From the NCBI GenBank assembly GCA_038280095.1, contig JAYPYG010000002.1:1-60915 (forward strand): a DNA stretch of 60,915 bases. The letters are read 5' to 3'. Positions 36,039 to 39,354 of the stretch are shown here, one piece after another. This DNA comes from Fidelibacterota bacterium. GTDB taxonomy: Bacteria > Fidelibacterota > Marinisomatia > Marinisomatales > Marinisomataceae. Numbering within the stretch: position 1 is the stretch's first letter; each line of letters opens with the position of its first letter. The notes below the pieces were generated by a model, which saw only the letters and a list, made by a program, of their open reading frames with translations, did no database searches and had not been told where the DNA came from. Made by a program: the position numbers and the translations under genes.

Positions 36039-36962
36039 ATGAAATTCATGGAAAACACTAAAATCAATTTTATGAAGTTCAAATCATTTGGATTTGGTCT
36101 TTCGTCCGTCTTAGCATTTGGATCAATTATACTTCTCCTTATGGGCGTGAATCTTGGCATTGACTTTAAAGGTGGAACAGCAATTGGAGTTAGTTTTTCT
36201 GAGGATGTATCCATACAAGAAGTAAGGGGCTCTCTTAAATCAGTATCTTTGAATGATAGCGTAGTAGATTTAAGTGGAGAAGAAATTAAATATTTTGGAA
36301 GTCAAAGCGATGTTATGATTAAAATAAAGTCTCTTGATAATGAACCTGAAAACTTTGGTCAAATAGTTATTAACCATTTGTATGATTCTATGTCAGCTAA
36401 AGCACCAGAAAACAAAAATGATTTCATTCTTTCACTAGGCTCAGTAAGTCCAAAAGTAGGATCTGAGTTAAGTGGAAAAGCATTTTGGTCTGTTGTATCT
36501 GCTTTAGTCTTAATTCTATTCTATATATCTGTAAGGTTTGAGTTTAGATTTGCTTTAGGGGCTATTTTAGCTCTTGTTCATGATGTTATTATTACATTGG
36601 GAATTTTTTCTCTAACTGGTTTTGAAATTACACTAAGTACGGTTGCTGCTTTTTTAACTATTGTTGGATACTCCTTAAATGATACAATTGTTATTTTGGA
36701 TAGAATTAGAGAAAATATGAAATCCTCTGGTACTGTAATGTTTGAATCAACTATTAATAAAAGCATTAATCAATCCCTAAGCAGAACTTTAATTACTTCT
36801 TTAACGACACTTTTTGTTATTATTGTTTTGCTTGTTTATGGGGGTGAAGTAATAAGACCATTCTCTTTTACTATGTTAGTTGGTGTCATTGTAGGTACTT
36901 ATTCTAGTATTTATATTGCTAGTGCATTGCTTGCAACTATCTACCAATCTTCTAACAAATAA
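36039..36962 (+). CDS. secF: Protein translocase subunit SecF
   Basis: GIDFKGG, HDV.IT, GYSLNDTIV..DRIRE, TLSR-like SLSRT, GTYSSIYIA. Confidence 0.97.
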   Translation: MKFMENTKINFMKFKSFGFGLSSVLAFGSIILLLMGVNLGIDFKGGTAIGVSFSEDVSIQEVRGSLKSVSLNDSVVDLSGEEIKYFGSQSDVMIKIKSLDNEPENFGQIVINHLYDSMSAKAPENKNDFILSLGSVSPKVGSELSGKAFWSVVSALVLILFYISVRFEFRFALGAILALVHDVIITLGIFSLTGFEITLSTVAAFLTIVGYSLNDTIVILDRIRENMKSSGTVMFESTINKSINQSLSRTLITSLTTLFVIIVLLVYGGEVIRPFSFTMLVGVIVGTYSSIYIASALLATIYQSSNK

Positions 36963-37843
36963 TGAATAATAAGATTTTATTTCCATTCATTGCATTGTGC
37001 GTGATTTGGGGTTCAACATGGTATTTCATTAAAATTTCTTTAAATGCTGGAGTTCCACCTTTTTATGGAGTGGGACTTAGATTTCTTTTTTCTGGAATTA
37101 TTTTTTACTTATATATTTATTACAAAAAGCTATCTATACCATTTACCCCGCGAGCAATAAAATTATATCTCTCGTTTGGACTATTAAACTTCAGTCTATC
37201 TTATGGAATGACTTATTGGGCTACTCAATATATTTTTTCTAGTATCTCATCGATTCTATGGGGTCTATTTCCACTCTTTACAAGCTTAATGGCTCATTTT
37301 ATGATTAAAGATGATCCTAATGAAAGATTGAATAAAAATAAAATTGCAGCTCTATTTACTGGTCTAACAGGAGTCATCATCATGAGTGCTAATCAAGAAA
37401 TTGATTTAGCCTCTCAATCGTTTTTGGCAATTCTTGTTTTAATTGCGGTAATTATTATAGCGGCATATCCAAGCGTTCTTTATAAAAAATACAATGACGA
37501 AGTTGGTCCATATCAAATGAATGCTGTTTGTCAGGTATTAACAGGCTTTGTAATGCTTTCTATGTCATTTCTAGTAAAAGAAGATACTTCAGTTATATTA
37601 TGGACAAATGAGCTTATACTTTCAACATTATATCTTATAATTTTTGGAGGATTTATTTCCTGGGGGATTTATTTCTGGCTATATCAATATCTCAACGTAA
37701 CACAAGTTACTTATGTTGCTATCTTCCCTCCAATAGTTGCCATACTACTTGGCTGGGTATTTTTAGGAGAAATACTTACAGCAAAAGAAATTATTGGAAC
37801 CTTATTTATTCTTGGAAGTTCTATACTTATATATAGGAAATAG
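36962..37843 (+). CDS. EamA/DMT family transporter
   Basis: IWGSTW..IK, about 10 TMs, duplicated EamA halves. Confidence 0.9.
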   Translation: MNNKILFPFIALCVIWGSTWYFIKISLNAGVPPFYGVGLRFLFSGIIFYLYIYYKKLSIPFTPRAIKLYLSFGLLNFSLSYGMTYWATQYIFSSISSILWGLFPLFTSLMAHFMIKDDPNERLNKNKIAALFTGLTGVIIMSANQEIDLASQSFLAILVLIAVIIIAAYPSVLYKKYNDEVGPYQMNAVCQVLTGFVMLSMSFLVKEDTSVILWTNELILSTLYLIIFGGFISWGIYFWLYQYLNVTQVTYVAIFPPIVAILLGWVFLGEILTAKEIIGTLFILGSSILIYRK

Positions 37844-37868
37844 AAACTATTTTTTTATAAATTAAATT

Positions 37869-38489
37869 ATGATAGAAAAATTTAAATCAAACTTACTTGC
37901 TGGTATTGCAACTATAATACCTCTTGCTTTAACTGTATACGTAATCCAAGTTATTATAACATTCACGATTTGGATAGGAGGTACAGTAGCTGAGCCATTA
38001 GAAAGATTTGTAAATGTCACTTTTCCTGGCTTTGGTATTATTAGCTCTATCGTTGGTTTACTTATAGTATTTTTTGCTCTCATTATCTTTGGAGCTCTAG
38101 CTAGAAATGTAATAGGTAAAAGAGTTGTAGACTGGCTTGAAAGTATTTTCAAAAAAATTCCTTTAATTGACTCAATATATGGTACTACAAAACAAATTAT
38201 TGAAACCTTTTCAGGATCACAAACTGACTCTTTTCAAAAAGTAGTTTATATAGAATACCCAAGAAAAGGGATGTGGACTTTAGGTTTTGTAACCGGTGAA
38301 TCTGTTAATCAAAATAACGAAGAATTTTATCATTTATTTGTTCCTACAACACCAAATCCAACTTCAGGTTATTTTGTAATTATTGCTAAAGAAGATACAA
38401 CTGCAGCAGATGTTGATGTAGAAGAAGGCTTTAGAATGATAGTTTCTAGCGGTATTGTAGGAAGCCACAAAAATAATATCATTAAATAA
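37869..38489 (+). CDS. DUF502-family membrane protein
   Basis: IP...SIY...KQ, F.KVV.IEYPR.G.W..GFVT, FVPTTPNPTSG. Confidence 0.88.
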   Translation: MIEKFKSNLLAGIATIIPLALTVYVIQVIITFTIWIGGTVAEPLERFVNVTFPGFGIISSIVGLLIVFFALIIFGALARNVIGKRVVDWLESIFKKIPLIDSIYGTTKQIIETFSGSQTDSFQKVVYIEYPRKGMWTLGFVTGESVNQNNEEFYHLFVPTTPNPTSGYFVIIAKEDTTAADVDVEEGFRMIVSSGIVGSHKNNIIK

Positions 38490-38517
38490 AAAAGGAGCAT
38501 CGAAATGCTCCTTTTTT
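38489..38517. terminator. Bidirectional intrinsic terminator
   Basis: AAAAAGGAGCAT-CGAA-ATGCTCCTTTTTTT perfect hairpin with A and T tracts, between convergent genes. Confidence 0.9.
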
Positions 38518-38545
38518 TAATTAAACCTAATAAGATAAAAGTTTA

Positions 38546-38773
38546 TTAACCTCTACCTCTAGCCATAGGTGCGCGAGATACATCACCGTCTTTATCGATG
38601 AAGTATAGGTAACCACTTTCACGTGTTACACCTGCGTCAGCAACTTTTTCAGCATTACCGCCACCAGATCCGCCTCTTGACATACCTGAGCGCCATACGT
38701 TACCATCTTTACCTAAGTAGTATAGATAGCCTTTTTCTTTACTAACACCACATGTTTTTACTTTTTCAGCCAT
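38546..38773 (-). CDS. Small basic protein with two internal repeats; candidate DNA-binding protein
   Basis: AAGGAG RBS, consensus promoter, terminator, two ~33-aa repeats. Confidence 0.85.
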   Translation of the reverse strand: MAEKVKTCGVSKEKGYLYYLGKDGNVWRSGMSRGGSGGGNAEKVADAGVTRESGYLYFIDKDGDVSRAPMARGRG

Positions 38774-38815
38774 TATATTCTCCTTAAAAAGTTTAGTGAA
38801 TAAGCTTATTACAAT

Positions 38816-38844
38816 ATTCTACTACTAAACTCGATTTTTTGCAA
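38816..38844 (-). promoter_or_regulatory. Sigma70-type promoter for the 75-aa gene
   Basis: Minus strand TTGCAA-17 nt-TAGAAT (-35 at 38839-38844, -10 at 38816-38821). Confidence 0.7.
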
Positions 38845-38925
38845 GAAATTTCTCGTCGGAGACCCCTCGGAAGAATTTTACAAAAAAGCTTTAAAATTTT
38901 TATTAATTAGTTAAATTTGGCCCAT

Positions 38926-38999
38926 GCCCCGGTAGCTCAGCTGGATAGAGCAACGGATTTCTAATCCGTAGGTCACAGGTTCGAATCCTGTCCGGGGTA
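38926..38999 (+). tRNA. tRNA-Arg(TCT)
   Basis: GCCCCGG/CCGGGGT acceptor, ACGGA-TTTCTAA-TCCGT, ACAGG-TTCGAAT-CCTGT. Confidence 0.97.
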
Positions 39000-39043
39000 C
39001 GACGACAAACTCCCCTTTTTTAACTTTTTAAAACCTCTAAAAA

Positions 39044-39201: not shown

Positions 39202-39354
39202 ATGAAGTATAAAGTTGTTGAAGCAGATTCAAGTAAAGAATTAGCAAGAAGGATTGAGATTTGGCATAGTGAGGGTTGGAAATTAGTTGGTGGTGTATCA
39301 TTTGCTGCTTATGGTATGAACTATTATTATTGTCAAGCAATGGTTAAGGAATAA
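39202..39354 (+). CDS. 50-aa protein, DUF1737-like
   Basis: AAGGAG RBS; MKYKVVEADSSKELARRIEIWHSEGWKLVGGVSFAAYGMNYYYCQAMVKE; below the ORF-track size cutoff. Confidence 0.7.
   Translation: MKYKVVEADSSKELARRIEIWHSEGWKLVGGVSFAAYGMNYYYCQAMVKE

Follow-up and report, generated by a model that had tools for sequence, protein, structure and literature searches.

A small gene of strong conservation and high mRNA level lies within a 60,915-nt stretch of the genome of a marine SAR406 (Marinimicrobia) bacterium (contig JAYPYG010000002.1; the whole stretch analysed is referred to below as the window). Its open reading frame (ORF), on the minus strand at 38546-38773, is a real gene whose translation we checked (MAEKVKTCGVSKEKGYLYYLGKDGNVWRSGMSRGGSGGGNAEKVADAGVTRESGYLYFIDKDGDVSRAPMARGRG), and it encodes a 75-aa protein made of two repeats. 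The protein is under very strong purifying selection, and the gene is strongly transcribed, at about the level of ribosomal-protein genes or above in four marine metatranscriptomes. We put the chances at about even that the product is an abundant, sequence-nonspecific nucleic-acid-binding protein, with a nucleoid-associated (DNA-coating) role beside HU as the leading form. Small, abundant and basic nucleic-acid binders are a known functional kind; the family, which is unnamed and lacks a Pfam model, and the predicted fold, for which no structural match turned up, are not.

Two repeats and one predicted folding unit

The gene and the parts of its product are placed as follows.

38546-38773, minus strand: coding sequence, ATG and TAA included, for a small basic protein of 75 aa, all-beta by predicted strands (basis: translation, homologues, the ratio of nonsynonymous to synonymous substitution rates (dN/dS), RNA contigs)
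38669-38770, minus strand: repeat 1, aa 2-35, strands predicted at aa 3-6, 16-20 and 26-30 (pairwise repeat alignment and AlphaFold secondary structure)
38654-38668, minus strand: Gly-rich linker SGGGN, aa 36-40 (from sequence; its length and sequence vary in the family alignment)
38549-38653, minus strand: repeat 2, aa 41-75, strands predicted at aa 42-45, 55-59 and 65-69 (family alignment and model)

A first-pass annotation, made from the letters alone, had described a monocistronic gene for a small protein with two repeats joined by a Gly-rich linker, and this description holds, down to the translation that it quoted. The repeats (34 aa; aa 2-35 against 41-75) align without gaps, with 19 of 33 positions identical, 79% positives and a pairwise E of 9e-15. 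This two-repeat structure is far above chance and is retained in thousands of homologues. Repeat 2 is the better conserved half, Y57 and G63 being invariant in the family alignment. The protein had also been called Lys/Arg-rich. It is indeed basic (pI 9.4), but only moderately so, with 13 Lys and Arg against 9 Asp and Glu; 15 Gly and 7 aromatic residues stand out in the rest of its composition.

AlphaFold2, given a 37-sequence alignment, predicted six strands with a pLDDT of 88.8 and a pTM of 0.75, leaving only the linker and the C-terminal end uncertain; the linker is the lowest-confidence block of the model (pLDDT about 68). A single repeat modelled with a 22-row alignment reached a pLDDT of 76 and a pTM of 0.40, keeping its hairpin and losing its first strand. 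Because the lone repeat folds poorly, we infer that the repeat pair, not the single repeat, is the folding unit, in agreement with the repeats being paired in every family member inspected. Compared with solved structures, the predicted model gave no match.

Searches of Pfam, NCBIfam and PDB sequences with the protein, a family profile and a single-repeat profile returned nothing significant. Weak matches to FaeA, glucansucrase, LRP6 and 9erw_E were set aside as hairpin-motif noise, and the 9erw_E likeness was followed up with a four-repeat relative, with a negative result.

A family spread over bacteria and archaea

A word-indexed homology search found 2540 clusters (90% identity) at E<=0.01, the top homologues being 80-100% identical "hypothetical proteins" of Marinimicrobia/Neomarinimicrobiota/Fidelibacterota. 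When 1.84 billion representatives were searched exhaustively by phmmer, at least 845 clusters (50% identity) matched with E<=1e-3, 186 of them with E<=1e-10, and a scan of one genome per species gave at least 577 loci. No phage or plasmid homologues were found by tblastn.

Archaeal members occur in several groups. Micrarchaeota and uncultured Thermoplasmata carry a 71-aa Lys-rich form with a pI of 10, Woesearchaeota carry a family member (locus L080), and small-genome marine Thermoplasmatota carry copies 72% identical to the bacterial protein. One of these, a 76-aa copy at 4001-4225 of contig JAYYHK010000093.1 from a Thermoplasmatota metagenome-assembled genome (MAG; locus L070), lies on a contig that also encodes aIF2alpha, PAC2, ThrRS and GGGP synthase and is thus truly archaeal; locus L066 has a similar copy. 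The first-pass annotation had spoken of a bacterial counterpart of an archaeal protein, which proves too narrow, as the family also sits on bona fide archaeal contigs. This copy indicates that the gene has passed between domains, with marine Marinimicrobia and marine Thermoplasmatota as the two parties. These Thermoplasmatota genomes also have open frames of 269-273 aa that contain the two-repeat module.

Polyangia (Myxococcota) have a 78-aa core followed by a Lys/Ala/Pro tail of variable length, for total lengths of 100-135 aa. The core is 97-100% identical over more than 120 clusters at 90% identity (P0406-P0525), which are set apart almost solely by how long the tail is; this subfamily has an unusually frozen core and a fast-changing tail. 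Elsewhere, a 70-aa member (P0190) on metagenome contigs (L081-L083) lies within a conserved gene row, unlike the monocistronic Marinimicrobia gene; the order is DUF726, a 176-aa unknown, the 70-aa member, an HD-domain protein and a 254-aa unknown.

Histone-H1-like AKKAPAKK (Lys/Ala/Pro) tails were present in P0161, P0185, P0188, P0204, P0237, P0251 and P0252, as well as in the whole Polyangia subfamily. The repeat pair was fused to an HNH nuclease in P0249, to ASCH in P0224, to zinc ribbons in P0143, P0150, P0153, P0180 and P0244, and to GAF plus a prokaryotic RING, again in P0244. HEAT repeats and SHOCT were each fused to it in one member. It was also found in a TonB_C-containing membrane protein and in other membrane proteins; the three membrane relatives examined by eye (P0121, P0155 and P0235) have their repeats on the side predicted to be cytoplasmic. 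In so far as domain company is a guide, nucleic-acid binding is suggested by the H1-like tails, HNH, ASCH and the zinc ribbons. The tails and HNH say most and hint at DNA, whereas ASCH hints at RNA.

Strong purifying selection within the phylum

Between Marinimicrobia, amino acid identity of the two-repeat protein is 82-100%, whereas that of the flanking SecF, EamA and DUF502 proteins falls to 40-75%. We compared window positions 38546-38773 with the flanking 36039-38489, against loci L005-L071, using Nei-Gojobori estimates for the same genome pairs. The nonsynonymous rate (dN) was 0.02-0.06 in the gene and 0.08-0.30 in the flanks, 4-8 times lower, and dN/dS of the gene was 0.05-0.10. The synonymous rate (dS) was also 3-10 times lower, at 0.19-0.65 against 1.1-3.1 in the flanks, where it is saturated. 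Selection on silent sites (for translation or mRNA structure) could account for the low dS, as could the recent spread of an allele by recombination.

The gene was present in 90 of 151 genomes sampled from the phylum, nearly always in single copy and with almost equal profile scores. Carriers include all sampled genomes of the window's own order and class, bar one 92%-complete genome of its own genus, and extend to streamlined genomes of 0.8-1.1 Mb within that genus. Six families of the phylum were without the gene in this sample.

High mRNA levels and an unusual codon pattern

With the ORF alone as query, 14 metatranscriptome runs from 11 studies contained 64-84% of the sampled words; with the 3.5 kb around the gene as query, the share was at most 18% in any RNA run. 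Across 19 kb of the window, RNA contigs of the ORF were the deepest protein-coding ones in all four runs (X26, X36, X29 and X25). Compared with ribosomal-protein contigs of the same genome in the same runs, its depths were as listed here, all values being assembler contig depths that pool related strains and favour genes with conserved nucleotides, and so not quantitative.

Run X26: ORF 43-105; ribosomal-protein contigs 22-49
Run X36: ORF 11.5; ribosomal-protein contigs 5-9.6
Run X29: ORF 7.1; ribosomal-protein contigs 2-5.3
Run X13: ORF 12; ribosomal-protein contigs 4.5-20

In run X25 the ORF contig had a depth of 5.6. The mRNA of the HU gene was absent from three of four runs and partially covered in the fourth. 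The high expression that had been proposed for the gene is thus borne out at the mRNA level.

Elevated GC had been offered as a further sign of abundance. The ORF does have a GC of 0.43 against 0.30-0.33 in its surroundings, which ranks it at the 94th percentile among the 1150 ORFs called for this 1.1-Mb genome, but as a sign of abundance this is weak. GC at third codon positions (GC3) is 0.24, near the genome median of 0.21; most of the excess is therefore due to Gly, Ala and Arg at codon positions 1-2, and general codon choice does not account for it. Measured against ribosomal-protein genes (the S10-spc-alpha cluster), the codon adaptation index (CAI) is 0.56, below the genome median of 0.625, and codon adaptation in its simple form was therefore rejected as proof of high expression.

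The codon pattern is nevertheless unusual, and is not like the genome's own highly expressed pattern. Of its 14 Tyr, Phe, Asn, Asp, His and Ile codons, 9 end in C, whereas the share is 22% for the genome and 15% for the ribosomal-protein cluster (binomial p 8e-4). GGT makes up 73% of Gly codons, compared with 51% in the ribosomal-protein cluster and 35% elsewhere. This shift, taken relative to flanking genes, recurred at 34 of 48 orthologous loci. Half of the Arg codons are CGC or CGT, whereas AGA accounts for 86% of them in ribosomal-protein genes. Outside the window, two other contigs of this genome (G000, C6 and C36) hold dozens of small ORFs with 65-86% C-ending codons, unlike the rest of the 31%-GC genome; these could be phage, foreign DNA or a binning contaminant.

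Expression signals and gene neighbourhood

The signals around the gene are as follows.

38780-38785, minus strand: ribosome-binding site AAGGAG, 6 nt 5' of the ATG (read from the sequence)
38816-38844, minus strand: promoter-like site TTGCAA-17-TAGAAT (consensus scan, 9/12 match, imperfect)
38848-38858, minus strand: conserved block CGACGAGAAAT, directly upstream of the -35 element (columns almost without variation in the upstream alignment)
38487-38518, both strands: bidirectional intrinsic terminator consisting of an A-run, GGAGCAT-cgaa-ATGCTCC and a T-run (fold energy)

The ribosome-binding site had been predicted and is as described; 16 aligned orthologous upstream regions have AGGAG-type sites at the equivalent position. 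The claim of a consensus promoter fared less evenly, since the match is imperfect, while the site is promoter-like and conserved in the phylum. In the same 16-region alignment the -35 element (CTTGCA/CTTGAC) is nearly invariant among diverged Marinimicrobia, and so, phylum-wide, is a CGACGAGAAA block beside it on the upstream side; because both are nearly invariant, we regard the promoter as a conserved feature. One caveat is that an RNA contig extends to 38841, into the promoter-like site. A better-scoring 10/12 promoter match was discarded, because it overlaps the ribosome-binding site and the start codon and is unable to serve this ORF. The CGACGAGAAAT block could be an UP element or else an operator.

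Copies of a CG(A/T)CGAG motif lie directly 5' of the -35 element (window positions 38800-38870; loci L013, L020, L046, L051, L054 and L056). Many genomes outside the window's genus have a further copy of the motif (CGTCGAGAG) directly after the -10 element, giving an operator-like layout around the promoter.

The terminator had been assigned to this gene as its own; it is instead bidirectional and common to the convergent DUF502 gene at 37869-38489 on the plus strand. A simple pattern scan missed it and folding revealed it, the RNA hairpin GGAGCAU-UUCG-AUGCUCC having a dG of -18.8 kcal/mol and a z of -4.5, with 0 of 200 shuffles folding as well. An Rfam scan of the locus returned only the tRNA, with sub-threshold matches that fall on the terminator hairpin.

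The two-repeat gene is monocistronic and lies outside any ribosomal or translation operon. Its neighbours are unrelated: SecF, an EamA transporter, DUF502, a divergent tRNA-Arg(UCU), a DUF1737 mini-ORF, an NHL-repeat protein and FKBP. The tRNA-Arg(UCU) gene, at 38926-39000 on the plus strand, is divergently upstream in most Marinimicrobia checked (loci L001-L056), and the archaeal copies at L066 and L070 have tRNA-Ser(UGA) directly after the gene. The 50-aa ORF at 39202-39354 on the plus strand, located in the spacer that adjoins the tRNA-Arg gene, has a DUF1737 match that exceeds the gathering score (E 3e-7). In its architecture the two-repeat gene is typical of nucleoid proteins, being monocistronic and having a promoter that is conserved and a terminator that is strong.

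Comparison with known small nucleic-acid-binding proteins

Bacterial chromatin is usually described by few families, namely HU/IHF, H-NS-like proteins, Fis, Dps and Lsr2. HU/IHF (PF00216) would share the functional class proposed here and has an unrelated fold, there being no PF00216 match in the two-repeat protein. Each of the 151 sampled genomes has HU, and in the present genome it lies at G000:C33:13541-13810. Replacement of HU by the two-repeat protein was accordingly rejected, and the protein is best seen as an addition to HU. The number of HU-family copies differed with the presence of the gene (phylum sample G001-G150): 82 of 90 genomes with the protein had two or fewer, and 57 of 61 without it had three or more. 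This pattern is suggestive only; it is confounded by phylogeny, as the split follows family lines and may reflect very few evolutionary events. The cold-shock domain (PF00313) gave no Pfam match in the protein. A separate gene for that domain (CspA) lies elsewhere in the genome and no complementary pattern was seen, so replacement of CspA was likewise rejected.

Some HU or Hc1-type proteins carry Lys/Ala/Pro tails, for example mycobacterial HupB/MDP1. The AKKAPAKK tail of the Polyangia and other relatives is of the same kind as the one that extends actinobacterial HU.

Sul7d (Sso7d/Sac7d) and Cren7 of Crenarchaeota share with the two-repeat protein a length of about 60-75 aa, a basic character, abundance, a monocistronic gene and a structure that is wholly or mostly beta. 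Their nucleic-acid contacts are generally placed on a beta-sheet face with hydrophobic or aromatic residues and flanking Lys/Arg. They differ in being SH3-like barrels, whereas the two-repeat protein is an internal duplication of a three-strand unit, and in being crenarchaeal, whereas this family occurs in mesophilic marine bacteria, Polyangia, DPANN and Thermoplasmatota. Profile similarity was absent, with hhalign probabilities of 0.2% for Sul7d and 0.1% for Cren7 against reference sequences entered by hand.

Locally, the protein also recalls the choline-, cell-wall- and glucan-binding hairpin repeats of the CW_binding_1 type, in an aromatic strand, a D-x-x-G turn and a second strand (compare "...GNWYYLDKNGNM" with "...GYLYFIDKDGDV"). 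The matches were not significant (E 0.14-0.4), and no Pfam match was found. Those repeats are about 20 aa, extracellular and in long arrays, whereas the two-repeat protein has no signal peptide and the repeats of its relatives are cytoplasmic.

The first-pass annotation had proposed a resemblance to the crenarchaeal chromatin protein CC1. The cited accounts describe the CC1 protein of Thermoproteus tenax (UniProt G4RKF6) as a monomer of 56 aa with a single domain and a pI of 10 that binds ssDNA and dsDNA (PMC4200833, PMC7613761, PMC2275093), with similar affinity for the two (Luo et al. 2007, as cited in PMC4200833). Its range as given there is Thermoproteales and Desulfurococcales, with jackhmmer matches in Nitrosopumilus maritimus, and in some genomes it co-occurs with histones and MC1 (PMC2275093). 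Pfam has no CC1 model (PMC7613761). Both proteins are small, basic, beta-rich (here by prediction) and highly expressed (here as mRNA). By its description CC1 stands apart from a 75-aa protein whose repeats fold as one in the model, and the range of the two-repeat family (Marinimicrobia, Polyangia, DPANN, Thermoplasmatota) differs from the published range of CC1.

Another parallel is a candidate nucleoid protein of Methanomassiliicoccales (WP_019177984.1/AGI86273.1) with 70-74 aa, a pI of 9.6-9.9 and a monocistronic gene (Hocher et al. 2022, PMC7613761). It makes up 1.3% of the M. luminyensis proteome, has a predicted novel fold, is found in archaea and some bacteria, and is said to occur throughout Methanomassiliicoccales (PMC7613761). 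The two-repeat protein shares its small size, basic pI, monocistronic gene, predicted novel fold and presence in archaea and bacteria. We compared the two by genome distribution: among 301 Thermoplasmatota genomes, 46 had mcrA and 18 matched the two-repeat family profile (E<=0.001), with an overlap of 0. With none of the 46 mcrA-positive genomes matching, WP_019177984.1 was rejected as a detectable family member. Homology searches from archaeal-like and from tail-bearing subfamilies led to Micrarchaeota and Thermoplasmata MAGs and to Polyangia, not to Methanomassiliicoccales. Published criteria for nucleoid proteins are small size, basic charge, abundance and a single-gene operon (PMC7613761); the two-repeat protein has 75 aa, a pI of 9.4 and a monocistronic gene, with abundance at the mRNA level.

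Weighing a nucleoid role against its alternatives

If the protein coats DNA, the predicted structure offers a way in which it could do so. The two 34-aa repeats would fold jointly as a single compact beta module of six strands that has two-fold pseudo-symmetry inside it. Each half presents an aromatic hairpin (G-Y-L-Y-F/Y ... D-K-D-G) that is conserved and has conserved Lys/Arg on its flanks (repeat numbering: K22, R28 and R33). The resulting two faces, equivalent to each other and both aromatic and basic, might contact the backbone and the bases or grooves of DNA, or single-stranded nucleic acid, in a mode like that of other small beta-sheet chromatin and cold-shock proteins, and in other lineages the H1-like Lys/Ala/Pro tail would add affinity. 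We infer nucleic-acid binding, the preference for DNA over RNA and the binding faces alike. DNA is favoured over RNA because of the H1-like tails and the HNH fusion, and the spread over bacteria and archaea with 72% identity speaks for a ligand that the two domains share and against a protein partner confined to one lineage. Further points in favour are the mRNA abundance, the strong constraint with single-copy presence through much of the phylum, the nucleoid-protein-like gene architecture, the cytoplasmic placement of the repeats in membrane relatives and, suggestively, the HU copy numbers.

Several observations weigh against a DNA-coating role. HU and CspA are both encoded in the genome, leaving no functional gap to fill. 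Profile, PDB-sequence and structure searches gave no similarity to any known DNA- or RNA-binding fold, and the ASCH, HEAT, SHOCT and membrane-protein fusions are not DNA-specific. The Marinimicrobia form is tailless and only mildly basic (net +4, pI 9.4). Its CAI lies below the genome median, and the contig depths that place it with the ribosomal-protein genes carry the biases already described. The proposal of a novel nucleoid-associated protein survives in part: the family is uncharacterised and has fusions that point to nucleic acid, but with HU kept it is not the nucleoid protein of an HU-less cell.

An RNA-binding protein, either an RNA chaperone or a ribosome- or mRNA-associated factor whose aromatic hairpins coat or remodel single-stranded RNA with no part in organising DNA, is the alternative that we take most seriously, although we regard it as rather unlikely. 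Exposed beta-strand aromatics with flanking basic residues, as the sequence and the model predict them, would suit the classic single-strand binding mode of cold-shock domains (CSD) and RNA recognition motifs (RRM). ASCH, to which one relative is fused, is usually an RNA-linked domain, the mRNA level tracks the ribosomal-protein genes, conservation is comparable to that of translation components, and the gene adjoins tRNA genes, tRNA-Arg in bacteria and tRNA-Ser in archaea. However, the commonest informative fusion is the H1-like tail and another is the HNH nuclease, both DNA-oriented; CspA is already in the genome; and the gene lies outside ribosomal and translation operons. Transfer between bacteria and archaea at 72% identity speaks against a domain-specific ribosome site, although generic RNA binding would still be possible. 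The repeat pair could also be a general beta-hairpin interaction unit, serving as an adaptor for a protein or small ligand with no nucleic-acid role, for example as a stress protein or docking regulator. Its presence on HEAT, SHOCT, GAF plus prokaryotic RING, TonB_C-containing and other membrane proteins fits such an adaptor, as do the absence of a match to nucleic-acid-binding folds and the weak, non-significant look-alikes, which are sugar- or choline-binding hairpin repeats and YWTD blades. A specific protein partner would hardly explain the high-identity cross-domain transfer, the H1-like tails and the HNH fusion, however, and no conserved neighbour gene hints at a partner, the Marinimicrobia gene being monocistronic and contexts elsewhere varied. 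Expression at the ribosomal-protein level would also be unusual for a regulator, and we consider an adaptor improbable.

That the protein is a tandem-duplicated bacterial homologue of CC1, the identity first suggested for it, we consider very improbable. The likeness is general (small, basic, beta-rich, highly expressed), and the comparison, made with CC1 as the literature describes it, brought no sequence evidence for homology. CC1 is a single-domain monomer, whereas here the lone repeat folds poorly (pTM 0.40) and the repeats are paired in all relatives inspected; the phyletic distributions differ; and there is no profile similarity to Sul7d and Cren7, the other small crenarchaeal beta proteins.

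Nucleic-acid coating beside HU remains our preferred reading, and it has a wider form that we advance tentatively, as possible and short of probable. In that form the protein would be the founding member of a new chromatin or nucleic-acid-coating class, with a pseudo-dimeric six-stranded beta fold not seen before, exchanged between bacteria and archaea and a major nucleoid component in SAR406, in Polyangia (with H1-like tails), in DPANN and in marine Thermoplasmatota.

Significance for marine prokaryotes

SAR406 is among the most numerous bacterial groups of the dark ocean. Few genes of this globally abundant marine phylum are transcribed as strongly or conserved as well as the two-repeat gene, which is kept in streamlined genomes of 1 Mb. 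With 75 residues, a soluble look and no cofactor, the protein should be easy to study, and a Pfam family can be built from the present alignments. Should it bind DNA, prokaryotic chromatin biology would be enlarged by a fold and a cross-domain family that are both new; should RNA be its ligand, it would be a new abundant RNA chaperone. Either way, it ranks among the most highly expressed "hypothetical proteins" of ocean metatranscriptomes.

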